NCBI GenBank assembly: GCA_965208835.1 | Contig: OZ242358.1 | Coordinates: 5,116,621 to 5,180,620, forward strand | Direction of reading: 5' to 3' | Length of the DNA: 64,000 nt | Origin: Candidatus Latescibacterota bacterium | GTDB lineage: Bacteria > Latescibacterota > UBA2968 > GCA-2709665 | In this document: positions 4,935 through 35,732 of the stretch, in pieces | How positions within the stretch are numbered: the first letter of the stretch is position 1 | Layout: every line of letters begins with the position of its first letter | Program-made: the position numbers and the translations under genes | The notes under the pieces: generated by a model | Seen by the model: the letters and a program-made list of their open reading frames with translations, nothing else | The model's database searches: none | What the model was told of the DNA's origin: nothing

Positions 4935-7900
4935 TTAGTACGTCTTCGCGATCACAAAACCGGCGTCCTTCTCGACGGTTTTGCTGGTGTTCCGGTCCCT
5001 GACAGTTACTCTCAACAGGTATTTGCCGGGCGGACGGTTTTCAAGCTCGAGTTCCACGTATTCCGCTTCCTGGGCCGCCGTGCCCTGTTGTTCGTACGTA
5101 ACGGAGAGTTCCTCACGTTTGCCTTCCCGCCATCGGGTCAGGCTGGATATGATACCGACGGCGCCGGGGTTGTCGTTCGACGTGACCGTATAGGATACTT
5201 CGTAATCCGTCTGACCAAACTCGTCCTGTGACAGGTTGTAGATCTCGTAATAGACGAATACGCTCTGGCCTTTCGCGTACGTCCGCGTGGGCATAGGGAT
5301 CACACGCACCTCACCCTTGCTGAATCTAGATCCTGTTTGCTCCTTTTCAATTTGCCAGGCGAGTTGCAGATCGCTGATCTGTAATCCTTGCCTTCCGTAC
5401 GGTTTTACGATTACCTCCTGACGATATCTGCCCCGGCTTTGGGACAATCGGTCCTTGATTCCAACCTCCATCAGGTAGCGCCCCGCGGGAACGGCCAAAC
5501 GAACCATATCCGGTACGAAGCCGTCTCGCCTTCCGGTAAGGTCGCCGTCGTTTTCAAAGTTGATCTGTCCGTCTCTTCGGTAGACTGCGCCGGTCTGCCT
5601 GTTGACCAGCGTGACGGTCCGTTCAACCTCAATTCGGGTTTCGTTCTTCTCCTGCTCGTAGTGTCCCTTTACGTGAGGAATGCCCAGATAAACTTCCAAT
5701 GAGGATTGATCGTCTCTTCGAAAGTCCGCCAGATCGTAGTAAAACGTGAAAGGGTCTTCATTGGTTTCGAGCTTGTAATAGTTGGGCGTGGCGCTGGCGG
5801 CCTGGGCGGTGACGGTTCTCGGGTTGTAACGATTCAGACTGGCCTGTTGTCGAACGGGAATCCGCGCATCCGTGGGTGACGGCGCAAAGTCGTAGATCCC
5901 GTTGTGAAATTCATCCGCAAAAGTGATCTCGATTCCGCCGCCGACGTCTGTGTAGACCCACGTCACCCATGCGACCATGGACGCATCTTCCTCGCTGGAG
6001 ACCGGCCTGTAGTTCGTGGGAGGAAGGGCATCGCTGGCGTGGTTGTTACTATCGTCCTCAATTTCCGCACTGAATTCCGGTCCTTCGCCCAAAGACTGCC
6101 GGAGGCTTTGAACGGGATAGACCGGGCCGGGATAGATGGACTCGAAGGGAGATACTTGAAGCTTATAATCTCCTGCCTTGTGACGGGTCCCGTCCACATC
6201 CACAGCGGATCGAAGAAAGTTCTTCGCTGGGACGGAGGTGCCGTAGATCGCCCGGGCAAGGCGTTCCTTGACCCGCTGGACGGCAAGGCTCTGATCCGCG
6301 TTCATCATATCGGATCGCGACCGATGGTCCGGCTCCCCGAACCGCACGTACACATCGCCGCGGCGGTCCCAGGGTTGTCGGCCTGACGAGAAGCTGCGGC
6401 GCGCGTACCACACCCGGCGATAGTGCTCCAGCTGACGTTCGTTGGCCGACGTGGTTAAATCAGGGTCTTTTTCGGTCCAGAACCTCTGCAGGAACGCTAC
6501 CTTTGACGCTTCCGGCAAGTTTTCAAAGGCTGCCAATTCGTCTTCCGACGCCACAAGGCTGATATCGCCGAAGAGCGCACGATCCTCGGCGCTCAAACTC
6601 TCCAGGTATCTGCTGAAGTATACATCAGCCTGATCGAGGGCTTCCAGTTTCAGACATGCCTGAGCCAATATGGGCAGGACTTCGGTGTCCTGGGGGTGCT
6701 GGCGGGCGTAGTCTTCCAGGAGTTCAACAATCCTGCCATACTCCCGGGACTTCAGGTAGACGGCGGCCAAACGATTCCGGCCCCGCGGATCATCGGGACG
6801 CAGAGACATGTACTGGGCGTAGTGGAGCGCCGCTCGTTCATAATCCTTGTGAAATGTCTCGTACCATTCCCCAAGAAGCAGATAGGCAGGTCCGAATGTC
6901 GGATCCATTTCCAGAAGCTTCTCACAGTCGCCTTTGACGTCGAATTCCTCTAGTGCGTACCTGATTTTGGCAATGTTGAAGCGCGCCTCGACATAGTCCC
7001 GGTCGTACTGCAGTGCCTTCTGGAAATATCGAATGGCGTCATGACGGGCTTTCGGGCGTTCCTGAAACACCAGGCCGAGGCCGTTGTACGCTTCGGCCAG
7101 TCTGTGGTCCAATCGGGTCGCCCGTTCGAACGATGCCAGCGCCTTATCCAATTGCCCCGACTCCAGGTAGGCATAGCCCGCCTTCGCGTGTCCCAGCGCG
7201 AAACGAGGCGCCACCCGCGATACCATTTCCAGCGCCTGAGGCGCAAGCGGATTCCCGGCTTCCAGCAGGGCGACCCCGGCAGAGAGAATAGAGTCGACCT
7301 GCGCGCGACCGATAGCCCGGTCCTGCACGCGGTCGCCAGGGGGATCACGGACCAGTTCAACCAGCCGACCTTTATAGAAGAAGCTGGTCAACATCGCTTC
7401 GTCCCGGTCCGCGTCAGACCGATAGAAGTAGCTGAACTCGCGACCGGATTCTGGGTCCGCAGGAGACCGAAAAAGCGCATTCAGTACTTCCAGGTCTCTC
7501 TTTGCGGAAACTTGCGCTGCGGCCCAGGACTTGAGCAACGAAAGGGTTTCCGGTCGACGTCCGTCGTGCGCCAGGGCGTATGCACGGAAGAGATCCCCGA
7601 CAATCCGGAGATGGTCGCGGCAAACCCAGCGGGCGCCGTCTCTTCTGGCTTCTGCGGCTCTTCGTTCCAGTTCGCGCACGTATGCGTCAATCGGTTCAGC
7701 AAAGAATCCAATTGTCCTGTGTTGGCGGCGCATCGCCACGAATGCGGAAGCCGCCCGGCGATACTTCTTCGACGCGGCTTCAAAGTCCCATTGGTGCAGG
7801 GCTGTGTACGCCATGGCAGACGCCTGAAATGCGTTTCCAAGCGCTTGCAGCACGGCGTTTATTTTTTTCGATGCCGCATCTGACGTGCCGGTGTTGTATG

Positions 7901-8712: not shown

Positions 8713-9825
8713 TTAAGGCGTGAAGATGAAAATCTGATCCGTAATCGACTCAGGAGAATGACCGCCATCCGTCGTCTTCAATCCGCCGGCGATAAGAACG
8801 CGGCCGTCATCGAGGAGCGTAACCGTCTGCCCGGATCGCCAAGATCCTATGTTGTGTCCCGTAGGTGAAAATACCTGGGTGTCCGGATTGTACAGTGCGA
8901 TATTGCCGTTGTCCCGGTGGATGAAAAACACCCTGCCGGACGGCAGCAGCAGGGCGGCTAAGGGATCCATTACGGAAGTTCCGGCGGGCGAGAAGGTGTT
9001 TGTCTCGGGGTTGTAGATCTCGGGAGTCTGTGCGCGACGCCCGTCTCGCCTGTAGCCGCCGACGATCATTACCCTGCCGTCCTGAAGGAGCACCGCCTTA
9101 TGGAGCATGCGGTCGACGTGCAGGCTGCCTGCCTCGGAAAAGGCTTCGGTCGAGGGATCATAGATGAAATTCTGTCCCAGCAACCATTCCCTCCCGATGG
9201 TTCTTCCTCCAACGATCAGCACGCGGCCGTCCTTCAACAAAGTCGCCGTATGCCCAAATCCTGGATGGTCCATCGCGAATGTGTCGGAAAGTGCGCCTGT
9301 AGCGGGATCGAAAACACGCCATCGTCCACCCCCGGGGTGTCCGCTGAGTAAAAGGATCTCTCCGTTGGGCAACACGGTGGCAGTCTCGGTCCCGACCGAA
9401 AAAGGTGCGTCTGCAACGGTGTCGAATCTGCCGGAATGAGGATCGTACTTCTCAATGGGGAGTCTAAGGAAACTGGATATAACCAGGACCCGACCGTCGG
9501 GAAGCAATATTCCGTGGTCCTTGCTGCGACTGGCGGTCAGGTCTCCCGTAGGCGTTGAGACCCCGGTTTCAGGATCGAAAATCTCCGCGCTGACAAGAAG
9601 ATCTTGCTCGATTACACCCCCTCCCGCAGGAGGTAGTGCCGCGTTGCCGCCGGCAATCAGGACCTTGCCATTCTGCAATAGTGTCGCGACATGCAAATTT
9701 CGCGGTCGAGTCAGATTTCCGACCTCATGGAGACCCCGTTCAAGGTCCGGCGCCGTCACCGAATCGCTTCCGCAAGCGCAGAGGCTCGAGAGGACTAACA
9801 GCGCAAGCAAGATTCTGGTGGTCAT
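8713..9825 (-). CDS. Kelch/galactose-oxidase-repeat beta-propeller lipoprotein
   Basis: Lipobox 'LSSLCAC-G', repeated 'R..HTATLLxDGRVLIxGG...EIYDP' units, and an RBS before ATG 9825. Confidence 0.88.
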   Translation of the reverse strand: MTTRILLALLVLSSLCACGSDSVTAPDLERGLHEVGNLTRPRNLHVATLLQNGKVLIAGGNAALPPAGGGVIEQDLLVSAEIFDPETGVSTPTGDLTASRSKDHGILLPDGRVLVISSFLRLPIEKYDPHSGRFDTVADAPFSVGTETATVLPNGEILLLSGHPGGGRWRVFDPATGALSDTFAMDHPGFGHTATLLKDGRVLIVGGRTIGREWLLGQNFIYDPSTEAFSEAGSLHVDRMLHKAVLLQDGRVMIVGGYRRDGRRAQTPEIYNPETNTFSPAGTSVMDPLAALLLPSGRVFFIHRDNGNIALYNPDTQVFSPTGHNIGSWRSGQTVTLLDDGRVLIAGGLKTTDGGHSPESITDQIFIFTP

Positions 9826-9879
9826 TTTCTTCTTCCCTCGTTGAGGAATGAACTGACATCCCCACAACGTATCAGCCGT

Positions 9880-10085
9880 CGCCGACCCCTTCGACAGGCT
9901 CAGGGCAGCGCCTTCGACCCTTCGACAGGCTCAGGGACCGTAGGCCCAGGGCAGCGCGTTCGACATTTCGACGAACTCAATGCAGGCAGGCTTAGGGCAG
10001 GTTACGGGTCTCCTGAAAGCGGCCCAATGACGTTAAATGAACGAATTAACGCGTGGTCATTGAGCTTGTCGAAATGCCCGCTATT
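9880..10085. repeat. Cluster of CTTCGACA(G/A)GCTCAGG REP-like units
   Basis: CCCTTCGACAGGCTCAGGG occurs twice at about 9887-9937, with degenerate and inverted units to about 10075. The same family occurs at 23110-23235 and 36060-36185. Confidence 0.7.
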
Positions 10086-10127
10086 CAACGACGCTTCGAC
10101 CCCTCGACGATGGTTATTGCGAAGCAT

Positions 10128-10425
10128 GTCATTCTAAGCGCAGCGAAGACTCTCCCGTCCGTTCCGTGCAGCAGGACGACGTGCTGCCTCTCAGGTGTCG
10201 CCACGTGGTAATTGCACTGGGTTGATCCCATGCTGCAGTAGATCCTTCGTCGGCCTGGGGCGCCTCTGCACGACAATCTGATCTCATGTGAATGAAACAG
10301 AAGTGATTCCTGGACGTTGCACCCTGGCCTCCTCTGGATGACAGCGGGAAGCATCGTGCTTGACGATCGGCCAGCCTGTCATTCTGAGCGATGCGGGCAG
10401 ACAGGAATGTCCGCCCCACCTTCAC
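10128..10425. repeat. Mosaic of REP-like units (GTCATTCT[A/G]AGCG family plus GGACATTCCTGTC copy 2)
   Basis: GTCATTCTAAGCGCAGCGAAG at 10128, GTCATTCTGAGCG at 10378, and a 31-bp copy at 10395-10425. Confidence 0.6.
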
Positions 10426-10552
10426 TTCGGCTTCCTCACTGCTTATGTTGGGATTCGATCCTGCCGTTCTCTTCGCTGACGTCGCTTGGCGTGTATATCC
10501 TGAATCCCGTAGAGCCGTTATTCCATCCATGTTTCGGTTGGCCCCGACAATC

Positions 10553-10625
10553 CTATTCTGCGATCACAAAACCGGCGCCCTTTTCGACGGTTACGCCGCT
10601 GTTGCTGTCGTGGATCAGATACTGT
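10553..10625 (-). pseudogene. Relic 3' end of a GWxTD long-subtype paralogue
   Basis: Translates 'QYLIHDSNSGVTVEKGAGFVIAE*' versus A3 'VTVRDRNTSKTVEKDAGFVIAKTY*'. DNA ATCACAAAACCGGCG(C/T)CCTT(T/C)TCGACGGTT is shared with 4951-4980. Confidence 0.75.
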
Positions 10626-10666
10626 ATCAAATGTCCACCCGTAATCCGCACGCACGCCCACCTCGG

Positions 10667-11761
10667 CTAAGGGCGGTACGCAAGTATCTGATCGATGGAC
10701 TCTCCATTTTTTGACCCGCCAATAATCAGCACACGCCCGTCGCGAAGCGCAGTAACGCTATACAGCTTGTAGTCTAGCCCGATACTGTGGCCTGTGGGAT
10801 GAAATGTCCCGTTTTCAGGGTCGTAGAGTACCACGTCGCCGTTGCGGAGGATGAAAAATACATTCCCATTATTTAAAACAGCGGCAGCTCGAATCTGCTC
10901 GCTGCCCGGGCTCCCTGCGGGCAAAAACGTGCCGTTGGTGGGGTCGTAACGCTCAGCGGCCGTGACCTGCGTCGGAGAGGACGGATCACCTATTCTGCCG
11001 CCTGCAATGAACACGCTGCCGTTCCGAAGCAGCAGCGCCGCATGTCCGTATCGCTCGTGCGTCAGACCCCCGACCTTCGTAATAATATTGGACGATGGGT
11101 CGTAGATTTCAGAATCTCTAACCGCACGATCGGTAATGCCACCGGTAATCAAGGCCCGCCCATCCCGCAGCATTGTCGCCGTATATGCCCCGCGAGGGAC
11201 CGCCAGCCTGTTCTTGAATTCAAACTCGCCCGTTTCCGGATCGATCGTCCAGATCGCGCCGGATCGACCGAATGCAAGGATTTTTCCATCTGAAAGCGCC
11301 ATGGATTTGGAGATTTTTTCGAATGCGGGATTGAATTGAACTGGCGTAAATTCGCCGGTTCGTGGATTGAATATTTCCACCGGGTAAGTCTTTGAACGGG
11401 TATGCTGAGTTGCGCTTGCAAATACAACCCGGCCGTCTGGCAGCAACGTTCCCTTGTCGTTCATTCGTGCGGTCGACATGCTGTGGGTTGCCCTGGAGGA
11501 TCCGGTTTCGGGATCGAAAATCTCCGCACTGCTATGATACGTCGCGTATGCATCGGGCCCACCCGTCGCGGCGCCTCCACCGATAAGTACCCTTCCGTCC
11601 TGCAACAATATCGAGTAGTGCGAGTGCCGCTTGTCCGTCATGCGTCCGGCGACTGCAAAGCCGATCCGTTCGCTCTTCGCCTCCGGGGACGTCGGCGCGG
11701 GCGAACCGCAACCCATCAGGCTTGAGACAATTGCCAGTGCGGAAATCATCCTGACGGTCAT
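10667..11761 (-). CDS. Kelch/galactose-oxidase-repeat beta-propeller lipoprotein (paralogue)
   Basis: Lipobox 'SSLMGC-G', repeats such as 'HYSILLQDGRVLIGGG...SAEIFDP', and a C-terminal 'IDQILAYRP' like the neighbour's 'TDQIFIFTP'. Confidence 0.88.
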   Translation of the reverse strand: MTVRMISALAIVSSLMGCGSPAPTSPEAKSERIGFAVAGRMTDKRHSHYSILLQDGRVLIGGGAATGGPDAYATYHSSAEIFDPETGSSRATHSMSTARMNDKGTLLPDGRVVFASATQHTRSKTYPVEIFNPRTGEFTPVQFNPAFEKISKSMALSDGKILAFGRSGAIWTIDPETGEFEFKNRLAVPRGAYTATMLRDGRALITGGITDRAVRDSEIYDPSSNIITKVGGLTHERYGHAALLLRNGSVFIAGGRIGDPSSPTQVTAAERYDPTNGTFLPAGSPGSEQIRAAAVLNNGNVFFILRNGDVVLYDPENGTFHPTGHSIGLDYKLYSVTALRDGRVLIIGGSKNGESIDQILAYRP

Positions 11762-11840
11762 CGAATGTCCTTCCACGGAAAATAAACGGGTAAAACCAAA
11801 TCAGAAATCCACATCTCCCCAGATTTCATGCCTACGGCGT

Positions 11841-11993
11841 GTTCCTTAAAAGCGGGGAGACGGAAGAGGTAAGAGGTGAGAGATCGTCTGCCTTGTGTGG
11901 ATTCAACTCAGGCCGCAGGCAAGTGGAGAGAATAAATCGGGCAAGGTCTTCATCTCCCGTCTACCCTCTCCCCTCTACCCGCCTTTGAGGAAC
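11841..11993 (+). repeat. Structured ~130-200 bp intergenic repeat (GCCTTG...GGCAAGG core), copy A
   Basis: Purine-rich arm, core GAGATCGTCTGCCTTGTG...GCCGCAGGC...GGCAAGG, pyrimidine-rich arm. The ends GTTCCTTAAAAGCGGG and CCCGCCTTTGAGGAAC are near-perfect inverted repeats. Homologous to 47033, 49602 and 59901. Confidence 0.7.
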
Positions 11994-12020
11994 CTCTCGC
12001 CCTGAATCCAGCAGGCATTA

Positions 12021-15000
12021 CTAAGGCGCAATAACAAACACAACGTCTTTCTCCGCCGTTTCACCGCTGTTCCTGTCTTCGATTGATACCTTCAGCGAGT
12101 ATCGGCCCGGAACCTGTTCAGCGAGGTCCAATTCAACATATTCCACTTCCTGTGCCGCCTCCCCCTGCTGTTCGTAGGTGACGGCCAGTTCCTCGCGTAT
12201 CCCGGGTCGCCAGCGGAAGAGGCGGGAGATGTTGCTGGTTGCTCCCGGTATGTCTCTGGATGTGATCGTGTGGGATACAGTGTAATTGGTCTGCCCGAAC
12301 CCGTCTTTCGCCAGGTTGTAGATTTCATAGTACACGAACACGCCCTGGCCTTTCTTGAACGTCCGCGACGGCATTGGAACGACGTTCAGGTCTCCCTTGT
12401 TGAACGGGCTGTCCGCTCTTTCCTCTGCTACCTTCCAGGCCAGTTCCAGGTCGCTGATTTGCAGCCGGTCCTCTCCATACGGCTCCACAACAACCTGCTG
12501 GCTGTAGGCGCCCATGCGTCCTCTGAGCCGGTCCTGCGACCTCACCTCCAGACGGTAGGCGCCGGGCGGCAGGTTCAGCTTCAGCACGCCGGGAACCTGG
12601 ATGCCCTCTCCGGCCTGGTTTCCTTTCGCCTCGTACGTCAATCCATCCGATTGCCGGTAGACCGTGTCCAGCGTGGATGAAATCAGCGCCGCATGGTGCG
12701 TGAGCACCTGACGCGTGACGTTCTCTTCCGAATCGTAGTGGGCAGGCAGGATGGGGACCCCGTAGTAGATTTCCAGGAGGCTGCGGTCATCCTCGCCCCT
12801 GAAGTCAGCCAGTGAATAGTGGAAATCGAGAGGCGCCGACTCCTCTTCCGGCGCATAGTAATTGGGTGTTACACGTGCCGCTCGCTTGTAGATCTCTCTT
12901 GGAGAGTGGGTTCTTAACTTTGCGGTCTGGCCGAGGTCAATGTCACCCCGGTCGGGCGGCATCGGGGCGTATTCGTACGTTCCGGCGCCGAATTCGTCCG
13001 TAAAGGTGATTTCAAGGCCGCCGCCCACGTTTGTATAGATCCACGTTTCCCACGGGATGGTGCTCATGTCTTCGCCGGAAGTAACCGGTTGATAGTTGCC
13101 AAACCCCAGTCGCTTGTCCATATCCATGAGCCCCAGCTTGACGGTATCCATAACGTCCTCCACCGGTACGGGTCCCTCAAACCCTCCACCCCCACCGGAG
13201 AATTCATCCCCACCTCCGGAACTACCGCCTTCGCCGGGCGGTCCCACATTACCCCTACGCGGACCCGGAGTCTCCGCTTCTGGAAACTCGTACCATTCGC
13301 CCTCGAGTCGTCGCTTGCCGCGTATGGGAAAGACCGGCCCCGTAAACGTCTCTCCCATTCCATCGCCGCCGTAGATATTCGCGGCGAGGCGTTCCTTGAC
13401 CCGCTGAACGGCCAGGCTTTGTTTGTAGTTGGGCCGATCCGATCTGGAGCGGTGGTCCGGTTCTCCAAACCGGATGTAGACCTCGCCTCTGATGTCCCAC
13501 GGCTGCTTGTTCTCCGAAAATTCCGTGAGCGCCTGCCAGACACGACGGTAGTGTTCCAGCAGGCGTTCGTTTACCGGCGTGGACAGGTCCGGATCGCGGT
13601 CGTTCCAGAACCGTTTCAGGAATGCGGCCCGTTCACGCTCGGGAGTATCGTTGAATTCGGCCAATTCTTCCGATGACGAGACCAGGCGGATATCTTCGTA
13701 CAAACCACGCTCATCCGGCGCGAGTTTTTTTACGTAGTCCTGAAAGAACTCCATTGCCATGTCGGCCTTTCCCTGCTTCATGGACGCCTGCGCGACGATC
13801 GGCATGAGTTCAATCGCATCGGGGTTCTCCGCGACGAAACCCAGCAGCTTCGCCATGATTTTCTCGTAGTCTTCGATCATCAGGTAGGCGACGCCCAGCC
13901 GGCTGCGCAGACCGGAATCGCCGGGTCTCAGCGCCATATATCGGGTGTACCAGACAATGGCCTGTTCGTAGTCCTTCCAGAAATCGGCGTACCACTCGCC
14001 CATCAGGCGATAGGCGTCCGCATAGTCCGGGTCGAGCTCCAGCACCCGTTCGACCGCGCGGCCCACGTCGTATTCATTCAACTGGTAGCGCATTCTTGCG
14101 ATCTGATATCGGGCGTCCACGTACCCGTGGTCACGGGCAAGGGCCTCCTGGAAATAGTGGATGGCCAGGTTGCGTTCCTTCGGAATCTCCGCGTAGACCA
14201 GACCCACACCGTAATAGGCCCTGGCGCCTCCCTGTAGAGAGATCGCTTTCTTGAAAGCCCACATCGCCCGCTCGTAGTCTTCCGCCTTGTAGTACGCGTG
14301 GCCGAGTTCGATATGGAGAGGCGCGTCCTTCGGGCGCTGGACGGCAACGAGACGGAACAGTCCGGCCGCCTCCCGCAGCCGGTTCTCTCTGGTGCGCTGC
14401 ACCACAACCGCGAAAAGAGAGTCGACCGTCTCGGAACGCATATCCACCGCCTCGAGGCTTCGCGCATCCGGCGTTTGCGTCAGGTGAAGATACCGGTCCG
14501 AGTGCCGGAAACACGCCAGGATTGGCATGCCGGGAGCGGCGTCCGGCCGATATAGATATTCGATCAACGGCTCCGAATCGGAAGTTGTCGGACAGCTGAA
14601 GACAATGTCGAGGACTTCCTTGTCTCGCCTGAGTTCCGGTTCGCTGGACGCCTGCATATCTACGTTCTGTTTCATCCACCCATACAGAACGCTGTGTTCA
14701 TTCGGAAGGGCGCCGTGCTTTTCGGCGTAGCGGTGCGCCAAGTCGTTCAATACGAGCATGTGTTCCAGGCAGGCATGCTCTCCTGCGGCGGCGCCGGTTC
14801 TCAGCTGTTGCTCGCGCAGCGTCGCCACGTACGCGAGGCAGCTTGCTTTCGACATCCGGAGGTCCTTGTGATGTTTATGGAATCCCGCGAACATCCGTTC
14901 AACGGCCTTTCGCGCGTCCTTCTCTCTGTGGCGGTCCGCCCGGTGCACGGCTGAATTCATCCGGCTGATCCGGATCATTCCTCTTTGAAGTTCAGCCAGG

Positions 15001-15809: not shown

Positions 15810-15905
15810 CTGGCCTGTCCCAGCTACTGCCTCTGAAGAAAACATCCTGGAGCACAATACTCCAGGACACGGAGAATTACGTTTACGAATCTTAATTTCG
15901 GTCAA

Positions 15906-16952: not shown

Positions 16953-17065
16953 TTTACACAAATCTCCTGCTGGTCAACGAACCACGACGCGTGCGCGATT
17001 CGGTATATGACGTCTCAATGCCCAAGACCATTATCGATAAGGCGATTCACGGCTCCTGATCGAAC
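16953..17065 (-). repeat. Conserved spacer of the tandem FGE array
   Basis: CAACGAACCACGACGCGTGCG...GA(T/C)AAGGCGA(T/C)TCACGG recurs at 18095-18206 and 19257-19376, so gene plus spacer were duplicated as one unit. Confidence 0.85.
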
Positions 17066-23235: not shown

Positions 23236-23568
23236 CGAACGCTGATGCGGTCGGGGGATTTCAACGCCTTACCTTTCCAGGCAACGCGAACAGGAATGCA
23301 CCCGATTTGCATCGAAGGCATACAATGAGGTCGTTTCCCGATTCCAGTCTCTTAATCGATCGTAAAACCTGTGTACGCGACCGTGCTCCTGCCCGCAAAC
23401 GACTCTCAAAACAACAATACTCAGCTCATGCTGGTCGCCTGTCCTGGAGCCATGGGGAACCGGCAGGCGACGTTCCCAATTGCCGTGATCTTCACTCAAT
23501 CACAACGAGGGTGGGGGCAGACATTCCTGTCGTGCCCTTCTCTTTTCCCCTGCCTGATATGGACCGAC

Positions 23569-27339: not shown

Positions 27340-27442
27340 GACGTTTACCTCGTGTCATTCAAAGACACCTATTATTCGACAGAAAGCCTGAAACGAAAGA
27401 CGAGCTTCAAATTGCCACCGCGTCCAATACGTCGAGGCCGGT

Positions 27443-27674
27443 CGGCGCGAAATCCCTGTCCGCCTCTAATACTCGCTGGAAGGCTTTGATACTCTCCTCA
27501 GAGGCGACACTTCAGACCCGCTCCATCGCCGTCTCATAGAGCCTTTCGGCAAGCTGAGGATCGCCGGTGGTAATTGGCCCTGGGAGAGCGAGTCCGAGAC
27601 ACAGAACGGACGCCGACCATTGAAGTCGACCTTGTGCGGCGCCTATGCAGTTCAATATTTCGACGGAGCGGCAT
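27443..27674 (-). pseudogene. Decayed 5' fragment of a short-subtype GWxTD paralogue
   Basis: 'MPLRRNIELHRRRT...[frameshift]...GDPQLAERLYETAMERV*SVASEESIKAFQRVLEADRDFAP' aligns with the B2 N-terminus 'MPFPRICELHRRRT...GDSQLAERLYETAMEQVGSV...ADRDFAP'. Shared DNA: GTCTCATAGAGCCTTTCGGCAAGCTGA. Confidence 0.85.
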
Positions 27675-27855
27675 TGCGTGTGCATTCAAATTCACATCGA
27701 GGAGAAACCGTCGATAAGTTGCGGATTAGAAAAATGAACCTTGCATTGGATTCCTACGGAGAGAAAAAGGGCTTGAACCAAGCGGTTGGAACATACCAGA
27801 TACGGCATGGTGTGGCCCAAGGATTCGAACGCAAGACCCGATCCTGATCGGGATT

Positions 27856-30207
27856 CTATTCAACCACACGGAACACTACGTCCCGTTCAGCGGTCTGACC
27901 GGTGTAGAGGTCCTTCACAGCAACGACCAGCTTGTGGAAACCCGCCGGGGCGCTGCTGGCATTGATCTGCAGGAATGTGAAGTCATCGTTCTTATATCCC
28001 TGGTAACGTGCTGTAACAGTAGTTTCCGCTCCTTTACGCAAACGAGACGCTGCTTCGATCTCCTCGGAAATCTTATTGCGTTCCGGCAGGATGTACTTTA
28101 CTCGATAACTCACGGACGGCTGTGCCTGACCACTATCCTTAGTGTCCCCTACGATAGTCTGAATCTCCGTGACGGCACCCTCGCCCGGTACGTCCAGAGC
28201 GGCGAAGCGTTCCGGGAAAATTTCATCCGGTTTCGGCTGCGTTAATCGGTAGGAAATCCGGTATTTGGTTCTCCCGAATCGGTCCTTTCTCAGATTGTAA
28301 ATCTCAAGATAGAGAAAGACCGGCTCCGAACGCCCGTAGGTGTGTAGGGGATTTGGCGTGACCCGAAGATCTTCACGACCCTCGGGAAAGGCCGATTTTG
28401 GCTCAATCCCAGAAGCCAATAGTAGATCGCTCATCGCCACTAACGAGTCAGTCTCCCGAAATACCAGCCGTTCGTGAAAGGTCCCTATCGATCCAGTGCC
28501 ATGGTCCCGAACCTCCACTACGAGACGGTGCGGCACCGGCGAGACACGCAGCGTTCGGAATGACACAACATGGTTGCGCCTTAAACTTTCACTCTTTGTC
28601 CTTTTCCTTGTGTCGAAAACTGGCCACCGCATGGTCACGCCCATCTTCTTCCGATATACCTCATTCCAGTAATCATTGAAAATAAACACCCCATCATCCA
28701 AGTCCAGGAATCCACCGGGATCTGAAACCTGCACGCGCGCCTTAGGGATGGCGTAGGCGAACTCGACGCGAATACTGTCACGCTCCCTGAAAGCGGCGAC
28801 TTGGCGCGGCATCCGATATTTCACGTCACTATAGGGGTCAACGTAACGCTGTGGTGTATTTTGAAATACCTGTCGTGCGTGTGGCCGCGTTCCTTTCAAA
28901 CGTTCCCGTCGGCTTTTTCCCGAATAAAAGTCTCCCAGATCATCTCGCATCCTTGTAATCTTGACTGCACTCTTACCCACACACACCCAATAGTCCTTCG
29001 TCGATTCTCTCGCACTCCTTCCTGTATTCGATCCTCGCGCAAAACGCCAGGCGTCCAAACCGTCACCGTTCTCGAACCAAATGCGAAACTTCCCATAATT
29101 CCAAACCTTCCAGTTGGTAAAGACATCTCGACCTATATATCGTCCGAATTTGATGAACGCTTTCCCCGGATCAGTCTGCCACCCCATGATGCCCTTGAAA
29201 GGGCGGGAAAACCTGAGATTTGCGTAAGCAACCCGCCCGTAGTGTTCCATCTTTCGTTCATTGAATTCCGTCAGAAACAGGGGATCCTGCTTGCGCCAGA
29301 AGCTTTCGACACTGTCATTTGTCCAAATCTCACTTCCATTGTGATCGATTGTAACCGCCTGAGCCATACGTCTCGTTTCTTCCTTTGACGCGATAATGTC
29401 CACCGACTCCATCAAGGATCGCTCTTCGACGGTCATTCGTTCAATGGCTCGCCGGTAATAGTCATAAGCTACGTCCATTTCACCGAGCATATGATAGCCA
29501 AGACCACAGAACAAGAATGCATCCTTGTCATCGGGAAATTGTCTCAAAAGACGCTTGAACAGCAATACCAACGCTTCCGGTTCTCCAGTCTCGACATGGA
29601 GGAGTCCCATCATTTTGTACGCGCCTTTAAATCCAGGATCCGCTTCAATGCTTTGCCTCAAAAGCCCGTGCGCGCGTTCCACGGCTCTTTCGGCGAAACC
29701 CTTCCAGTAGAACACATGAACATCACGAGATTTTTTGAAGGAGACGAATTCCTTTTTATCGATCAACGCGAGATACTCCTGTACCGCGAAAAATCCCGCC
29801 CGGTACGCACCTTCTGCATTGCCTGTGTGAATACTTGCCATCTTTTGAAATTGTCGTCCCGCATTGTACGTGAATCCCTGCCTGCTCAGCAACTCACCCA
29901 TTGTCAACTGGTATTCGCTGTTCGACGGATCAATCCGTATGGCCTCGTTCAGCGCGTTACGTGCGCTCTGGCGCGTAAGTGGCGTGTTCATTTCGTTGTA
30001 CAGTTTTGCAATCTGATAGTGCGCTGGCGCGAATTCCCAGTCCAGCTTAAGGACCTGCTCAAATGCGTTGATACCCTCCTTCGGTGGTACCTGGCCGATC
30101 TGAGTCAATGCTTCGCGATAGAGCGAGTCCACTCGCGCAGACTTTGACAAGGCGAGTACATCGCTTGCCGACTGGAACATTAACATTGAGACCAATAGAT
30201 GTCTCAT
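27856..30207 (-). CDS. Exported GWxTD-domain/TPR protein, short subtype (B1)
   Basis: Signal peptide, TPRs, 'FWRKQDPLFLTEFNERKMEHYGRVAYANLRFS...GWQTDPGKAFIKFG' (canonical GWxTD). RBS GGAGGAG. Confidence 0.9.
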   Translation of the reverse strand: MRHLLVSMLMFQSASDVLALSKSARVDSLYREALTQIGQVPPKEGINAFEQVLKLDWEFAPAHYQIAKLYNEMNTPLTRQSARNALNEAIRIDPSNSEYQLTMGELLSRQGFTYNAGRQFQKMASIHTGNAEGAYRAGFFAVQEYLALIDKKEFVSFKKSRDVHVFYWKGFAERAVERAHGLLRQSIEADPGFKGAYKMMGLLHVETGEPEALVLLFKRLLRQFPDDKDAFLFCGLGYHMLGEMDVAYDYYRRAIERMTVEERSLMESVDIIASKEETRRMAQAVTIDHNGSEIWTNDSVESFWRKQDPLFLTEFNERKMEHYGRVAYANLRFSRPFKGIMGWQTDPGKAFIKFGRYIGRDVFTNWKVWNYGKFRIWFENGDGLDAWRFARGSNTGRSARESTKDYWVCVGKSAVKITRMRDDLGDFYSGKSRRERLKGTRPHARQVFQNTPQRYVDPYSDVKYRMPRQVAAFRERDSIRVEFAYAIPKARVQVSDPGGFLDLDDGVFIFNDYWNEVYRKKMGVTMRWPVFDTRKRTKSESLRRNHVVSFRTLRVSPVPHRLVVEVRDHGTGSIGTFHERLVFRETDSLVAMSDLLLASGIEPKSAFPEGREDLRVTPNPLHTYGRSEPVFLYLEIYNLRKDRFGRTKYRISYRLTQPKPDEIFPERFAALDVPGEGAVTEIQTIVGDTKDSGQAQPSVSYRVKYILPERNKISEEIEAASRLRKGAETTVTARYQGYKNDDFTFLQINASSAPAGFHKLVVAVKDLYTGQTAERDVVFRVVE

Positions 30208-30564
30208 TCCAGTGAGTCTCCTCCGATGTCTCGAGGCATTCGAGCCGCCCGGCTTTCTAATACCAAGTAGGCCCCCTTGAATTGCTAACGCATCCCGGGC
30301 TGTCTGCTATTGCATGAATCGACATTTCATCCATGAAATTCGAACCGGCATTCACAACAGGCTTCCGAGTACACCAAACCCACGTGAATTCGTCCCGCTT
30401 CCATTAGCTTCCATTATAAAAAGACACACGCCGCGCTGGGCGGGTTCAATTAACCTGAGATCTGCCCTCGGACAGAAGACCCCTGCATCCTCCAGTCGTT
30501 GCGTGACGCCTTAACCTCTTGAATTCCCGTCGGAATGGCTGGTCGCTCGGCCTTCTTCAGCACT

Positions 30565-30580
30565 TGCAATCTTCGTACCA
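30565..30580 (-). promoter_or_regulatory. sigma54 (RpoN) -24/-12 promoter
   Basis: Minus strand TGGTACGAAGATTGCA matches TGGYACG-N4-TTGCW with exact GG-N10-GC spacing and points into the GWxTD cluster. Confidence 0.85.
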
Positions 30581-30627
30581 GACTCCATAATAAAAATCGC
30601 CTGTGCGGTTACGCACAAGCGAAATAA

Positions 30628-30677: not shown

Positions 30678-30704
30678 CATGATGTATACATTGTATACAT
30701 CATG
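30678..30704. promoter_or_regulatory. Candidate upstream activator sequence 1 (27-bp palindrome)
   Basis: CATGATGTATACA-T-TGTATACATCATG with perfect 13-bp arms; core TGT-N11-ACA. Confidence 0.7.
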
Positions 30705-30805: not shown

Positions 30806-30822
30806 TGTATACAATGTATACA
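30806..30822. promoter_or_regulatory. Candidate upstream activator sequence 2
   Basis: TGTATACA-A-TGTATACA is the exact reverse complement of the UAS1 core (30683-30699). A related palindrome ACACTGTCTACAGTGT lies at 30778-30793. Confidence 0.65.
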
Positions 30823-30845: not shown

Positions 30846-33800
30846 TTACCTCAGACCGTACCGGCTCATCATCTTTTGCAGTCCGTTTCGACTCAGCCCC
30901 AGTTGGCGCGCGGCGCGGGTGATGTTCCCGTCGCACTGATTGAGCGCTTCGACGATCATCCGCCTCTCGAGGGACGCGACACGGGACTTGAAATAACTCC
31001 CATCACCTGACCGGAGTTGCTCGGGAAGCCCGATTCTTTCTGAGAACAGATCGGCGGAGACGTCTTTGCCTTCCTCCACCAGCGCAACCGCGCGCCTTAT
31101 CTCGTTCTCCAGTTCCCGCACGTTGCCCGGCCACCCGTGATCCATCAACGCCCGCATGGCCGCTACCGTGAAACCCGGAACCGCCTTATTCTGGTCCGCG
31201 CAAAGACGGTTCACAATGTGTTCGCATAACAATGGAATGTCTTCAATGTGGCGGCGCAATGGGGGCATTTCAATCTGCAACACACGCAGTCTGTAATACA
31301 GATCCTCCCGAAAAAGGCCGTTGCGCACATCAGCTTCCAAATCACGATTCGTCGCCGCGATCACCCGCACGTCCACGTTTCGTACCTCTGCCTCGCCCAC
31401 CCGCTGGATTTCCCCGTCCTGAAGCACCCGCAACAGGCTCGATTGGAGCTGTGCGGATGCGTTTCCAATCTCGTCCAGGAAGACCGTGCCGCCGTCCGCG
31501 GATACGAACAATCCCTTCCGGTCCGACGACGCCCCGGTAAAAGCGCCCTTCCTGTGTCCGAACAGTTCGCTCTGAAGCAGCTCGTGGGTCATTGCGGCGC
31601 AGTTGGCGGAGAGAAACGGCTTCGCCTTGCGTTCGCTCCGGCTATGGATAGCCCGGGCAGCCAGCTCCTTGCCCGTACCCGTCTCACCCTGTATGAGCAC
31701 GGTCATGTCGCTTTCAGCCGCAACTTCCACCAGCTTGAAAACCTCCTGCATAACGTCGCTCTGCCCAACGAGTTCTCCCAGGCGGTAGCTTTCCCCGGTC
31801 TGTTTCTGCAAGAAAAGCGCACGTTCCTGGATCCGGGAGTACATCCGGGCGTTGACAACCGCAATGGACACCAGGTTCCCAAACGCCGACAAAAGGGCGC
31901 GGTCTTTTTCGGTAAACAGATCCTCGAGCTCCCTGTGGTCCATGTAGAGCGCGCCGATAACGCCAGATTCCCCGTGCCGTAGCGGTACGCACAGAACCGA
32001 ACGGATGCCGTAATCGGTAACACTCGACCTCTGCCTGAATCGTTCGTCTACTCGAGCGTCCAGGCTCAATACCGGCTCGTTTCGCTCCATCGTCCACTTG
32101 ATGATTCCCCGGCTGATCTCGTGCGTTTCGACATCGTCGAGGTTATGCCTTCGCGCCACTTCGACGTGAACAGTGTCCTCGTCCTTTAACGCAATCAACA
32201 CGCGTTCGGCCCGGCTCACCTTCCTCAAGCGGTCCAGAATCCGGTCCAGAAGCACGTTCAGGTCCAGGACCGACGTCAAGACCTCGGAAGCCTGGTAAAG
32301 CGTTAGCAGATGTTTCTCGGAAAGCGCGGGAGCCATCTCCTTTGCGGGAAGCGTTAATGCAGATTGCTCTGAAACCCGATCCAGAAGATCCGCCGCCTTC
32401 CCGGCAAGATAGCGCAGACTCAGCCGCTCGGCAGCCCCGCGGGCGTCTTCCAGGTACCGCCGGGCGTCGGCAAGACGACACCGCTCCAGATAGTAAGCGC
32501 CCGCTACAACGTACAGAATTACTTGCTCATGACCGTCCAGCGAGCCCTGGGCTTCCGATACATGATCGAACAGGGAATCGACATCGTCATGCCGGCCGGC
32601 CGCGGCAAGCGATTTTGCCTTCGCGGTCCATGCCATGGCGCGAATATTTCCGCCGTACTCCACGCCCGGCCAGGCCCGTTCGGCCCAGGAAAGCGCCTCT
32701 TCAACGCAGCCGGTCTCAGCCAGCGTCTCGGCCAGCAATCCGTAGGACCGGTACACATGATGCATGCGCCCGCCATCCGACAATAAGCGCTCAGCAGATC
32801 GAGCATGCGTTTCGGCACTAGCGGTGTCTCCCTGTTCCAGGGCGATCCAGCCCAATCGATGATGTGCTCCGGCCTCCGTAGACTTCGAACCTCGCCTGGC
32901 CCAGAAGTCTCGATGTTCCTGGAATATCTCCTTCGCACGATCGAAATTTCCCAGTCGGATCTCTATACGTCCCAGCAGGAAAAGACTGCCATGGCGATTG
33001 GACCGATCCCCTGCCCTGTCCATCAGATCCAATGAAGACTCAAGGAGCGTCCTGGCTGTTTCATTCCGATAGGTAAACTGTGCCGAAAACGCGAGATAAT
33101 TCAAGGCACGCGCCTCATTGACGTCCCCTCCCAATTCCCGGCATCTTTCAGCGGCTGACTCACAAAATCTCTCGGCTGTTTTCAATTCCCTCAGCTCAAA
33201 GTAGATATTGGACAATAACCCCACAACACTCATTTCAGACTCGTCGTCGCCCAATTCTCGGAAGAGACCCAGGGCCTCCGACAACACGGATTCGGCCTCT
33301 TCATAATCCCCGAAATGGATGTGGTTTATTCCCATCATCCTCAACGCGTACGCTTTCTGCCGCGGTGCATCGGCGGACACCCACCGCATGACGTGATCCA
33401 ATTCGCGCCGAGCGTCCTTGTACCGGTCACAACCGGAGAGCGCCTCGGCGTAGGCGCAGAGGAAATCCAGGTGCGCCACCGACCCGCGAGAAACGCCGGC
33501 CGGCGCGTCGGGTGAGAATGCGCCTTTTTCAAGAATCGCTTCGAACAGCTCCAGGGCGTGCGAAAAGTCCCACATCCGCAACGCCATTCGGCCGGATGCC
33601 GTTACGTACTGTGCCATTTTTTTCAGGTCGTTCGATCTCGAGAAGTGGTAAGCCAGTTCATCAAGCGTCTCCAAGCCGCCGGACTCGGAACGAGTCTCCA
33701 GCGCCCTGCCTGCCTCCAGGTGAAGTAACGTACGTCTGTTCTCGGATATGCCGTCATAAACCGCCCGTTGAATCAATCCATGAGAAAAACGATACCGTCC

Positions 33801-35732
33801 CTCTCGGTCCTGCAGATCCTTCAAGAGGCCCAGGCGAACGTGTCCCTCCAGCGTCTCCAACAACTGCAGTTCGTCTTCGCGCCAGACCTCTGCAATCAGG
33901 CCGAATGAAAACGCGCCGCGAAAGATAGAGGCATATTCCAGCGCCTGCCTTTGGGCCGAACGAAGCCGTTCCAGGCGCAACTCGATGGCCTGCACAATGC
34001 CCGAAGGCATCGGCCATTCCCTGGACTCCGGCCATCTCCACCCGCCGGCCGAATCCCTCCAAATCAAACCTTCTTCAACCGAACCGCGGATCATTTCGAC
34101 GACAAACAGAGGGTTTCCCCCGGTCTCCGCGAAAATCCTGCGAGCTTCCGCGTCGGGGACCGCCTGCTCGCCAATCAGGGACGCTGCCAGATTCCCCGTT
34201 TCCTCCATTCCGAGAGGCTCGAGTTGAAGATGCAAAACGCCGGTTGCGTCAGGCCCTCTAGTCAGGTCGTCAATTCCCCGGGGCAACGGGTCTTCGCCCA
34301 CCTTGCGGCAGGCGAGCCCGAAGACGAGGGGCACTGGATCAGGACCTCTGCTCATAAAGCCGAGGAACCGCAGGGTCAGGTCGTCGGCCCACTGCAGGTC
34401 TTCAATGCATACAAGGGTGGGCGTTTCCCGGCTCAGGTCGTCGAATAATTCTGACATAGTCTCCATTGCCGGGTACGGATCCGGCTGATCGGCGGGCGCC
34501 GGCCTTTCGATTAGCGTTAGGACTCGCCTGACGGATGCTTCCAGATCCGACGCCTGCATGCCCGGCTGTTCCGCAATGTCGCGCAGGGCTTCCAGGAATG
34601 GACCGAATGGAGTGCCGCCGTTTTCATAGCAACGCCCGGTGAGAACGCGCATTCCCTGAACGCGGGCATCGGCCTGAAACTCTTCCAGGACCTGGGACTT
34701 CCCGATACCGGCCTCTCCGCTCACCAGCACCACGCGCCCCGTCCCGTGACCGGTTTCTCTCAGGATCTCCCGTAACGCCTTCATCTCACGTTCTCGCCCC
34801 TGAAATTGAGGCTGCAGAACGGGAGCGTCCCTTGTGCCCTCGACGTGAGGTGGACTGAAAGAATCGTCGCCGCGCTCCTGATCGGACCCGGCTTCCTCCT
34901 CTTCCATGAGATCGTGCAACAGGCTCCCTACGGAACTGTAGCGATCGATGGGCTCCTTCTCCAGCAGTTTCATGACTGATTCTTCGATCGGGGAGAAAGC
35001 ACCGCCGGTAGACGGGCGCGGCGGTGGGGGCAGGTCTCTCAAATGCTGGAACATCACCGAAGCCGGATTCTCGCCCGTGAAGGGCGGTCTCCCGGTGAGA
35101 ATTTCGTATAGCACGACACCCAGAGAATACAGGTCCGACCGCTGATCCGTTCGCCGCGCACGAATCTGTTCGGGCGACATGTACTCCACGGTCCCGGTCG
35201 GTCTGCCCGGCGGCGTCACACGCTGTTCCGCGGACTCCCGAAAACGGGCCAGACCCAGATCCAGAATCGAGACCTCAAGTTCGCCTTCAAACTCGGAAAT
35301 CATAATATTCGAAGGCTTCAGGTCCCGGTGCACCACACCCTGTTCGTGGATATACGCCAGCCCATCTCCGATCTGCCGGATGAGGGGAAGGAGCCATACC
35401 GTTCTCAGCCTCTCGAGGTCTTCCACGCTGGCGATCAGGTCGGATAGGGGGCGGCCCCGGATATAATCCATGGAAAAATACGGCTTCCCCGCGTGTAGTC
35501 CCCACCTGTGGGAACGGACAATCCGCGCATGCCGGATTCTGGAGAGAATATTGAACTCCCTCAGGAATCTCCGCTGCGCCTCGTCTCCCACGATATTCAA
35601 CATCTTCAGCGCTACCGTTGCGTCATCGTTCACGTCGCGCGCACGGTATACGGTACCCAGCCCACCGCTGCCAATCGCATCAAGAATCTCGTAACGCCCG
35701 TCGACAACCGTTCCAGCGTTTAACTCGGACAT
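30846..35732 (-). CDS. Multidomain sigma54-dependent activator: Ser/Thr kinase + STAND-type (AAA_16) ATPase + TPR + GAF + bEBP AAA+ + Fis-type HTH
   Basis: Kinase motifs 'GSGGLG', 'VALK', 'HRDLKPSN', 'DLGLA', 'YMSPE', 'SDLYSLG'; first ATPase 'GEAGIGKS' and 'IEDLQWAD'; GAF 'IRSVLCVPL'; bEBP 'GETGTGKE', 'SELFGHRKGAFTGA', 'FLDEIG', 'WPGNVREL'; HTH 'GNITRAARQLGLSR'. Confidence 0.95.
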   Translation of the reverse strand: MSELNAGTVVDGRYEILDAIGSGGLGTVYRARDVNDDATVALKMLNIVGDEAQRRFLREFNILSRIRHARIVRSHRWGLHAGKPYFSMDYIRGRPLSDLIASVEDLERLRTVWLLPLIRQIGDGLAYIHEQGVVHRDLKPSNIMISEFEGELEVSILDLGLARFRESAEQRVTPPGRPTGTVEYMSPEQIRARRTDQRSDLYSLGVVLYEILTGRPPFTGENPASVMFQHLRDLPPPPRPSTGGAFSPIEESVMKLLEKEPIDRYSSVGSLLHDLMEEEEAGSDQERGDDSFSPPHVEGTRDAPVLQPQFQGREREMKALREILRETGHGTGRVVLVSGEAGIGKSQVLEEFQADARVQGMRVLTGRCYENGGTPFGPFLEALRDIAEQPGMQASDLEASVRRVLTLIERPAPADQPDPYPAMETMSELFDDLSRETPTLVCIEDLQWADDLTLRFLGFMSRGPDPVPLVFGLACRKVGEDPLPRGIDDLTRGPDATGVLHLQLEPLGMEETGNLAASLIGEQAVPDAEARRIFAETGGNPLFVVEMIRGSVEEGLIWRDSAGGWRWPESREWPMPSGIVQAIELRLERLRSAQRQALEYASIFRGAFSFGLIAEVWREDELQLLETLEGHVRLGLLKDLQDREGRYRFSHGLIQRAVYDGISENRRTLLHLEAGRALETRSESGGLETLDELAYHFSRSNDLKKMAQYVTASGRMALRMWDFSHALELFEAILEKGAFSPDAPAGVSRGSVAHLDFLCAYAEALSGCDRYKDARRELDHVMRWVSADAPRQKAYALRMMGINHIHFGDYEEAESVLSEALGLFRELGDDESEMSVVGLLSNIYFELRELKTAERFCESAAERCRELGGDVNEARALNYLAFSAQFTYRNETARTLLESSLDLMDRAGDRSNRHGSLFLLGRIEIRLGNFDRAKEIFQEHRDFWARRGSKSTEAGAHHRLGWIALEQGDTASAETHARSAERLLSDGGRMHHVYRSYGLLAETLAETGCVEEALSWAERAWPGVEYGGNIRAMAWTAKAKSLAAAGRHDDVDSLFDHVSEAQGSLDGHEQVILYVVAGAYYLERCRLADARRYLEDARGAAERLSLRYLAGKAADLLDRVSEQSALTLPAKEMAPALSEKHLLTLYQASEVLTSVLDLNVLLDRILDRLRKVSRAERVLIALKDEDTVHVEVARRHNLDDVETHEISRGIIKWTMERNEPVLSLDARVDERFRQRSSVTDYGIRSVLCVPLRHGESGVIGALYMDHRELEDLFTEKDRALLSAFGNLVSIAVVNARMYSRIQERALFLQKQTGESYRLGELVGQSDVMQEVFKLVEVAAESDMTVLIQGETGTGKELAARAIHSRSERKAKPFLSANCAAMTHELLQSELFGHRKGAFTGASSDRKGLFVSADGGTVFLDEIGNASAQLQSSLLRVLQDGEIQRVGEAEVRNVDVRVIAATNRDLEADVRNGLFREDLYYRLRVLQIEMPPLRRHIEDIPLLCEHIVNRLCADQNKAVPGFTVAAMRALMDHGWPGNVRELENEIRRAVALVEEGKDVSADLFSERIGLPEQLRSGDGSYFKSRVASLERRMIVEALNQCDGNITRAARQLGLSRNGLQKMMSRYGLR

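Follow-up and report, generated by a model that had tools for sequence, protein, structure and literature searches.

Is a giant sigma-54 activator, followed by a long run of exported GWxTD, lectin-fold and Kelch proteins, the head of one conserved bacterial system, or is it a switch of a known kind that has come to stand in front of new genes? The question is raised by a block of 12 consecutive genes (positions 4935–35732) of the window, i.e. of the whole 64-kb stretch of DNA analysed here, which forms the final 64 kb of the single-contig 5.18-Mb genome of a Candidatus Latescibacterota bacterium (assembly GCA_965208835.1, contig OZ242358.1). The initial annotation described the block as an inducible envelope or surface recognition apparatus under a dedicated one-component switch. 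The comparison of the locus with its relatives favours another description, namely a sigma-54 regulon specific to this lineage and made up of binding proteins of the envelope or surface, in which an old regulator–promoter cassette has acquired new cargo. The probability of this reading is estimated at about 0.5.

The block comprises (i) one regulator, REG; (ii) five proteins with TPR and a GWxTD domain, G1–G5; (iii) four PF03781 proteins with the fold of the formylglycine-generating enzyme (FGE), F1–F4; and (iv) two Kelch proteins, K1 and K2 (Table 1). The list of open reading frames (ORFs) and the Pfam/NCBIfam scans agree with the annotated count and families: all 12 genes are intact and lie on the minus strand. 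The N-termini of all 11 post-regulator products, read by eye, are signal-like or lipobox-like, as had been described. The scans revealed no glycoside hydrolase, lyase or transporter gene within the block.

The regulator REG

The Pfam domains of REG are arranged in the following order: Pkinase (residues 14–233), AAA_16 (309–470), TPR, GAF (1157–1292), Sigma54_activat (1321–1488), AAA_lid and HTH_8 (1586–1625), the C-terminus being a helix-turn-helix (HTH) of the Fis type. The kinase part carries the motifs GSGGLG, VALK, HRDLK and SPE, with DLG at the place where DFG is expected. The STAND-TPR architecture proposed for the regulator is borne out by a Walker A motif (GEAGIGKS) in AAA_16 and by matches to PF13191 (111 bits) and TPR_12 (81 bits), both above cut-off; the TPR_MalT match lies under its cut-off. 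The AAA+ activator part (PF00158, E 4.6e-71) contains GETGTGK, GAFTGA at residue 1396 and VFLDE at 1417. Judged by its GAFTGA, Walker A/B and HTH elements, together with the single rpoN copy of the genome, REG looks like a working bacterial enhancer-binding protein (bEBP).

The closest described counterparts are the bEBPs of the NifA/NorR type, with which REG shares the order GAF, AAA+ (GAFTGA) and Fis-type HTH, as well as the layout of candidate enhancers about 110–235 bp upstream of a -24/-12 promoter adjoining the regulator gene. The NCBIfam scores for NifA (385 bits, cut-off 529) and NorR (355 bits, cut-off 476) are both below the limit. In contrast to NifA and NorR, REG has about 1150 extra N-terminal residues, consisting of a Hanks kinase, an AAA_16 STAND module and TPRs; no paper describing a kinase–STAND–GAF–bEBP fusion turned up in a literature search judged by its listings. 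The second likeness is to TIGR03903 (TOMM kinase/cyclase fusion), a kinase–STAND protein filed with peptide-modification clusters, which aligns with REG residues 310–720, from AAA_16 onward (261 bits, cut-off 706). The REG family in related genomes also adjoins a peptide and maturase pair. Unlike TIGR03903, REG has no cyclase domain, its output is a sigma-54 activator, and the peptide cluster is gone in the window.

The control region between REG and G1

The REG stop codon is followed successively by the distal palindrome, the proximal palindrome, a hairpin and a -24/-12 promoter. The promoter, TGGTACGAAGATTGCA, is the sole strict sigma-54 match in the window (1 vs 0.08 expected; at least one in 8 of 100 shuffles), and the whole genome has 18 such matches. 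Its place agrees with the annotated position of a sigma-54 promoter after the giant regulator. A sigma-54 weight matrix, derived from 20 sites of related genomes, assigns it 25.1 bits; the next best site of the block, located inside the G4 coding sequence, reaches 13.0 bits. Neither the strict nor the weight-matrix scan revealed a second sigma-54 promoter in any intergenic gap of the block, and the scans of the block for the sigma-70 consensus and for terminators remained at chance level, with the exception of the hairpin. The hairpin is most simply a predicted terminator of the REG gene. The palindrome occurs twice in the window (0 expected) and has no other exact copies in the 5.18-Mb genome. 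With REG directly upstream of the promoter and two genome-unique candidate enhancers between them, the suggestion that this bEBP sits beside its target promoter is supported.

The leader, which runs from the promoter to G1, contains no conserved ORF and has no Rfam match; the presence of a small ORF or a known RNA was rejected on these grounds. A block of about 30 nt (~30418–30449, minus strand), ending in a T-run and located outside any ORF, is kept in five of the six relatives with GWxTD cargo (L020 excepted) and could act as an attenuator or as a site of binding. A weak sigma-54-like site (35988–36003, minus strand; 12.0 bits by the family matrix) lies about 260 bp upstream of the REG start codon; autoregulation of REG through this site is possible but unsupported.

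The cassette and its cargo in related genomes

Full-length relatives of REG were identified throughout the order, with 43–91% identity, a single genome often having two or three of them. The 20 kb downstream of the regulator were taken from 20 of these loci, G005 (89% identical) not being among them. A GG-N10-GC promoter is present at the same distance from the regulator stop codon in 19 of the 20, including loci whose regulator is as little as 43% identical; 13 of the 20 also have palindromes of this type; and the hairpin aligns in all 13 genus-level loci, with changes in the bases of both loop and stem.

The genes behind this promoter differ from one group of relatives to another. The cargo consists of (i) GWxTD genes in six of the 20 loci, these being the closest relatives, with regulators 78–91% identical; (ii) a conserved peptide of about 60 residues and then a radical-SAM/SPASM enzyme of about 490 residues in ten loci (L022–L027, L032–L035); (iii) a short activator gene in three loci (L029–L031); and (iv) none of these in one locus (L028). 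The idea of a switch dedicated to one conserved system was not upheld, the same cassette driving the peptide and the radical-SAM/SPASM enzyme in 10 of 20 loci. Both of these genes lie within the first 2.2 kb past the regulator, behind the same sigma-54 promoter. The genus-level peptides share the pattern ..NGRI..C.WP.FP.LPPP, and the sister-family peptides end in PFPDDDDDWDDFD. In L023 the maturase is preceded by a conserved, cysteine-containing peptide of 64 residues without family match; the nearest relatives of this maturase are the thioether maturases SCIFF and PapB, with scores under the respective cut-offs (TIGR03974, 254 bits vs 425; PapB, 243 bits vs 340). The further cargo of L022 includes a six-bladed propeller, a redoxin, an ABC exporter, a rhodanese, an S8 peptidase, a Kelch protein, a C39-like peptidase and an RND pump, and this set is, by its predicted gene content, a peptide-product cluster. 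The peptide and maturase of the relatives look like an undescribed peptide-product family under a giant kinase–STAND–bEBP regulator. The genome of the window has no orthologue of the maturase, the best match being 22% identical. The identity of the window locus itself as a radical-SAM cluster for a ribosomally synthesized and post-translationally modified peptide was rejected: peptide and maturase are absent from window and genome, and the leader holds no conserved ORF.

On the other side of the regulator, an SBP_bac_5 gene is found in 11 of 12 regulator loci (L014 excepted). Among them are L012, L013 and L015, in which the genes downstream (L022, L024 and L027) are those of the peptide and the radical-SAM enzyme. 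Because the same upstream gene accompanies the regulator in relatives of both cargo types, the cargo appears to have been exchanged in place. An intermediate arrangement is seen in L023, where an FGE-fold gene and a G4-like gene stand 6 kb past the peptide and maturase. As far as sequence comparison can tell, REG was paired with GWxTD genes recently, at the level of the genus, through the rewiring of a switch whose target elsewhere is a peptide-modification cluster. The switch is of a known kind, with an undescribed sensor architecture, and has been rewired from the peptide cluster to expanding families of exported proteins. The block is, on this reading, young, and not a conserved system.

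Table 1. Positions of the genes and of the control and flanking elements in the window
Feature	Position	Strand	Description
G5	4935–8369	-	Long-type, 1144 aa; GWxTD aa 602–687; final gene of the block
K2	8713–9867	-	Kelch beta-propeller, 384 aa; lipobox-like N-terminus
K1–K2 gap	9868–10666		Dispersed short repeats; 108 matches elsewhere in the genome
K1	10667–11776	-	Kelch beta-propeller, 369 aa; lipobox-like N-terminus
G4	12021–15905	-	Long-type, 1294 aa; GWxTD aa 736–825
F4	15906–16961	-	PF03781 fold
F3	17066–18094	-	PF03781 fold
F2	18207–19265	-	PF03781 fold
F1	19377–20462	-	PF03781 fold
G3	20643–23033	-	Short-type TPR-GWxTD, 796 aa; GWxTD aa 315–402
G2	23569–27339	-	Long-type, 1256 aa; N-terminal extension (sub-threshold PD40), TPR, GWxTD aa 689–780
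G1	27856–30207	-	Short-type TPR-GWxTD, 783 aa; GWxTD aa 265–361, then tandem beta-sandwiches
Leader	30208–30564	-	About 350 nt, promoter to G1
Sigma-54 (-24/-12) promoter	30565–30580	-	TGGTACGAAGATTGCA
Hairpin	30597–30622	-	11 pairs (7 G-C), then TTTTTATTAT; between proximal palindrome and promoter
Proximal candidate enhancer (upstream activating sequence, UAS)	30683–30699		Palindrome identical to the distal one; centre ~112 bp upstream of the -24 GG
Distal candidate enhancer (UAS)	30806–30822		Exact 17-bp palindrome TGTATACA-N-TGTATACA; centre ~235 bp upstream of the -24 GG
REG	30846–35732	-	One-component regulator, 1628 aa; Pfam domains and motifs
tmRNA gene	39675–40034	-	Rfam RF00023, 208.6 bits; 4 kb upstream of REG

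The GWxTD proteins

All five GWxTD proteins pass the TIGR04514 cut-off of 28 bits (G1, 50.0; G2, 59.5; G3, 56.4; G4, 64.1; G5, 56.3), and the Pfam model PF20094 is above its cut-off in G4 alone. The N-terminal extension of the long-type proteins gave nothing beyond sub-threshold PD40 hints. The AlphaFold2 (AF2) model of G1 residues 265–783 (519 aa, pLDDT 85.6) consists of a small alpha+beta GWxTD domain and tandem beta-sandwiches; in Foldseek, the C-terminal model returned only beta-sandwich proteins (RbmA, factor XIII, arrestin) with TM < 0.2. The GWxTD domain modelled alone (pLDDT 84.0) had 0 matches in the PDB at E <= 0.001, a PDB profile search matched TPR proteins alone, and the Atlas search returned GWxTD clusters alone (0.86–0.87), with zero others once these clusters were skipped.

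In the numbering of the modelled G1 piece, the residues W40, P45, N52, E53, R61, G84 and G91 are invariant across 74 sequences with a mean column identity of 15%. The nearly invariant residues are mainly polar or aromatic, and include D, R and H. The family has 2708 cluster representatives (E <= 0.001, 50%-clustered library) and, by the automatic taxon labels of the Atlas, its clusters are commonest in Eiseniibacteriota, Gemmatimonadota and Acidobacteriota. Full-text searching of one literature library found no paper naming or describing the domain, in line with the earlier statement that GWxTD has no established function. The TPRs of G1–G5 give partial matches to the TPR lipoproteins of envelope machines (PrsT of PEP-CTERM systems, PilW, Tgl, GltE), which are likewise exported. 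However, these matches are far under cut-off and confined to the TPRs, and the GWxTD domain with its beta-sandwich tail has no counterpart in those proteins. The GWxTD family is the real unknown of the locus.

The FGE-fold and Kelch proteins

F1–F4 are tandem paralogues (64–73% identical to F1; PF03781 E 1e-38 to 4e-42). Each is built from a signal peptide, two dockerin-like Ca-loop repeats, both visible in the alignment of the four proteins, and an FGE-sulfatase fold, which is C-type-lectin-like. The FGE carries a catalytic cysteine pair near the C-terminus of the PF03781 fold. Because no such pair is present in F1–F4, where the segment at the catalytic position reads RGGSYxDRPxxIRSAxR, these proteins are not FGEs, and a true FGE identity was rejected. 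Their lone conserved cysteine sits in EYACRAG, and the C-terminal segment is without cysteine. The earlier remark that no product shows a catalytic motif is supported to this extent, i.e. for the FGE-fold proteins. Membership in PvdO (NF051459; 108–114 bits vs cut-off 500) and in PorK/GldK (TIGR03525; 71–75 bits vs cut-off 350) was rejected as well. The closest solved structure to F4 is PvdO (PDB 5hha, E 7e-23), a periplasmic protein of pyoverdine maturation, which is exported like F4 and presumably also lacks the FGE cysteine pair. Unlike PvdO, F1–F4 add the two dockerin-like repeats and form a tandem set of four paralogues, and pyoverdine genes are absent from their vicinity. FGE structures and PorK, of the type IX secretion ring, are partial matches through the PF03781 fold.

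The dockerin-like repeat recurs elsewhere in the genome in 23 short N-terminal matches to F1, and cohesin (PF00963) is found above cut-off at three places, near 4.917, 4.928 and 0.628 Mb. The cohesin matches at 4917220–4927971 fall in two open frames of 1625 and 1557 residues, which are candidate scaffoldins for the dockerin-like N-termini of this genome. These observations could be taken as pointing to a cellulosome-type apparatus for the capture or remodelling of a polymer, in which cohesin scaffoldins would carry the dockerin-tagged lectin-fold proteins, with GWxTD as an unrecognised enzyme domain acting on a glycan or on the cell's envelope polymer. The invariant N, E and R and the near-invariant D, R and H of GWxTD, and a type I phosphodiesterase gene inside a second GWxTD cluster of the same genome, would fit such a role. 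Yet genes for glycoside hydrolases, lyases and transporters are missing from the block, the GWxTD model finds no counterpart among solved enzymes and the dockerin match is under cut-off; this explanation is regarded as very improbable.

The four paralogues are most divergent in the last 180 nt, with 17–32% invariant columns as compared with up to 77% elsewhere. The C-terminal stretches of about 60 codons (19377–19610, 18207–18440, 17066–17300 and 15906–16140) are far more divergent than the remaining parts. The variable protein 2y3c of T. denticola was matched in the structure search of F4. A diversity-generating retroelement acting on F1–F4 was rejected, with 0 RVT_1 matches in the genome and no template repeat; the last 240 nt of the four genes match only one another.

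Divergence concentrated in the C-terminal loops of a lectin fold would also suit a host-interaction island of a sponge symbiont, in which TPR, Kelch and lectin-fold proteins, as "eukaryotic-like" binders of sponge matrix or cells, would be induced by a host cue. The related genomes are Candidatus Latescibacterota metagenome-assembled genomes (MAGs), a few of them filed as Gemmatimonadota, and the runs with a small share of this DNA include, as weak support, sponge and marine metagenome labels. According to PMC12993501, TPR is the predominant class of eukaryotic-like proteins in sponge-associated Latescibacterota MAGs. The distribution of the GWxTD family speaks against a symbiont-specific role: with 2708 cluster representatives, commonest in the three phyla named above, it is not confined to this lineage, and host binding by the products is a prediction only. 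A host-interaction island of this kind is considered improbable.

The Kelch proteins K1 and K2 exceed the Kelch_6 cut-off of 25.3 bits by far (76.8 and 85.1 bits), and their lipobox-like motifs, identified by eye, read LMGC and LCAC, respectively. An identity as radical copper oxidase (GlxA/galactose oxidase) was rejected (31.5 and 46 bits vs cut-off 800). Among the binding scaffolds from which the block had been said to be mostly built, the Ig-like part is seen solely in the tandem beta-sandwiches of the AF2 model, and the EF-hand repeats are weak.

Extent of the gene linkage

A gene-neighbourhood check, set beforehand, gave a divided result. In the closest relatives, the expected co-occurrence of regulator and GWxTD genes is present, since GWxTD genes follow the promoter in all six, and the set of FGE-fold, long GWxTD and Kelch genes follows it in five. 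The order FGE-fold, G4, K1 is kept in four of the six (L017–L020), where the gap between G4 and K1 measures 15–46 bp; in L016 an F4-like gene precedes G4, within which the 20 kb stop. In relatives beyond the closest ones, the genes are unlinked, an outcome that the initial annotation had itself named as speaking against the proposed system.

The distribution of GWxTD was surveyed in 81 sampled genomes of the phylum. It occurs in 29 of 29 genomes from the order's two families (that of the window not counted), with 8–44 matches each, and in 0 of 15 from a sister family outside those two; elsewhere in the phylum it is rare (1–6 matches in 9 of 36 genomes). The 69 short-type GWxTD loci in relatives have a Kelch homologue in 12 cases, an FGE-fold homologue in 9 and neither in 50, and in the sister family that carries them, the long-type loci are without Kelch and FGE-fold genes in 12 of 12. 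The genome of the window has 32 GWxTD matches, many of them in arrays, and a second cluster at 222888–252186 (L002, L003) holds five GWxTD and eight Kelch genes. Judged from these neighbourhoods, the linkage of GWxTD, Kelch and FGE-fold genes is confined to close relatives.

The block is flanked by a tmRNA gene and, at its opposite end, by an IS1595 transposase with a DNA methylase. Its GC content of 0.555 falls below the genome value of 0.595, and a lower one is found in just 2.9% of the 30-kb windows. tmRNA genes are frequent insertion sites of islands; no integrase was found near this one among the 10 flanking ORFs scanned. The larger gaps of the window are explained by inserted repeats and one gene fragment. 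Dispersed short repeats fill not only the K1–K2 gap but also the gaps 11777–12020 (G4–K1; 127 matches elsewhere in the genome) and 23034–23568 (43 matches). In the G1–G2 gap (27340–27855), a stretch of about 200 bp shares 72–73% identity with the 5' part of G3 and with that of a G3-like gene, and probably derives from a short GWxTD gene that has been lost; fragments of this kind are also present in relatives.

Such features raise the alternative that the block is no functional unit but the product of a birth-and-death expansion of exported repeat families in a plastic part of the chromosome. Its neighbours would then share ancestry and location only, and REG would control at most the first gene. 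This alternative accounts for the many GWxTD copies per genome across the order, often in arrays, for the variation of copy number and gene order in the six close relatives, with frameshifted gene copies in L018 and gene fragments between genes, for the repeats inserted in three gaps, for the low GC content, for the mobile element at the distal end and the tmRNA gene at the other, and for the 50 of 69 loci without Kelch or FGE-fold neighbour. It does not account equally well for 12 intact genes on a single strand, for the recurrence of the FGE-fold, G4, K1 order with tight G4–K1 spacing in L017–L020, or for the adjacency of GWxTD and Kelch genes in 12 of 69 loci and in the second cluster of the same genome. 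Moreover, the upstream cassette has outlived its old cargo intact, which speaks for its continued use. The absence of any functional unit is taken seriously but held to be rather unlikely. It carries a caution in either case: tandem arrays of expanded exported families should not be called "systems" from one genome.

Proposed function of the regulon

Under the preferred reading, a lineage-specific regulon of envelope or surface binding proteins, a cytoplasmic cue would be read by the kinase, STAND-TPR and GAF part of REG, which would then oligomerise on the two palindromes, open the sigma-54 promoter and send a transcript into G1. Because no second sigma-54-type promoter is present in any gap, the transcript probably covers the 25-kb block in large part or entirely. 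The products would leave the cytoplasm, the Kelch proteins as membrane-anchored lipoproteins. F1–F4 would act as non-catalytic, PvdO-like lectin-fold binders, hung via their dockerin-like repeats on cohesin proteins encoded elsewhere, and their divergent C-terminal loops would provide different specificities. The TPR–GWxTD–beta-sandwich proteins may serve as envelope scaffolds, in which the near-invariant polar site of GWxTD would engage a single shared ligand or substrate. The outcome would be an inducible envelope or surface binding set, with the host matrix, a polymer or the bacterium's own envelope as candidate ligands. The switch would not have been built for GWxTD cargo, given that in most relatives it appears to drive a small peptide and a thioether-type radical-SAM maturase. 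What survives of the annotated inducible envelope apparatus is the bEBP, the promoter and the exported binding-type scaffolds; its unity as one conserved system does not.

Several points weigh against the regulon. (i) The content of the block is fluid among the six closest relatives, in which one to four short GWxTD genes come first and zero to five FGE-fold genes are present; the 20 kb of L021 (G014) lack both an FGE-fold gene and a close G4 homologue. (ii) The second cluster at 222888–252186 has neither an FGE-fold gene nor the giant regulator. (iii) The start, extent and inducibility of the transcript are deduced from the DNA sequence, and the gaps of 516, 535, 799 and 343 bp inside the block could hold sigma-70-type promoters. 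(iv) Binding of the block products to each other or to a ligand is a prediction. (v) The polar invariants of GWxTD may fit an enzyme as well as a binder. (vi) The N-terminal repeats of F1–F4 are weak as EF-hand or dockerin-like elements (NF041540, 23–25 bits vs cut-off 29).

A bolder version, which is considered doubtful, takes GWxTD for a new-fold envelope domain with an invariant, enzyme-like site, expanded in one order of Latescibacterota, and the long GWxTD, dockerin-tagged lectin-fold and Kelch lipoproteins for a surface apparatus that has displaced a thioether-peptide cluster under a portable switch. If true, the cell would respond to the same cue with surface recognition instead of secreting a peptide. 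Already under the preferred reading, the locus is a clear natural case of regulon rewiring, in which the regulator–enhancer–terminator–promoter cassette is fixed and the cargo exchanged. It also offers an entry point to a large, unstudied family of exported GWxTD proteins, behind a promoter and regulator tractable in a reporter host, and the same switch in relatives points to an undescribed radical-SAM peptide family.

Further features of the block and of the second GWxTD cluster

A 133-residue ORF at 10129–10530 was considered as a 13th gene and rejected, as it has no family match and the surrounding gap is built of repeats. The G4–K1 gap measures 244 bp in the window, as compared with the 15–46 bp of the relatives. 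Directly past G5, the IS1595-family transposase overlaps the start of an N6/N4 DNA methylase gene (2206–4712, plus strand).

Besides its GWxTD and Kelch genes, the second cluster holds the type I phosphodiesterase, an HTH_3 protein and a 527-residue protein without family match. Just upstream of it (L001, 202351–219902), a divergent histidine kinase and an NtrC-type response regulator are encoded, and a strict sigma-54 site at 205371–205386 is followed by five tandem MacB_PCD/FtsX permeases of 763–890 residues.

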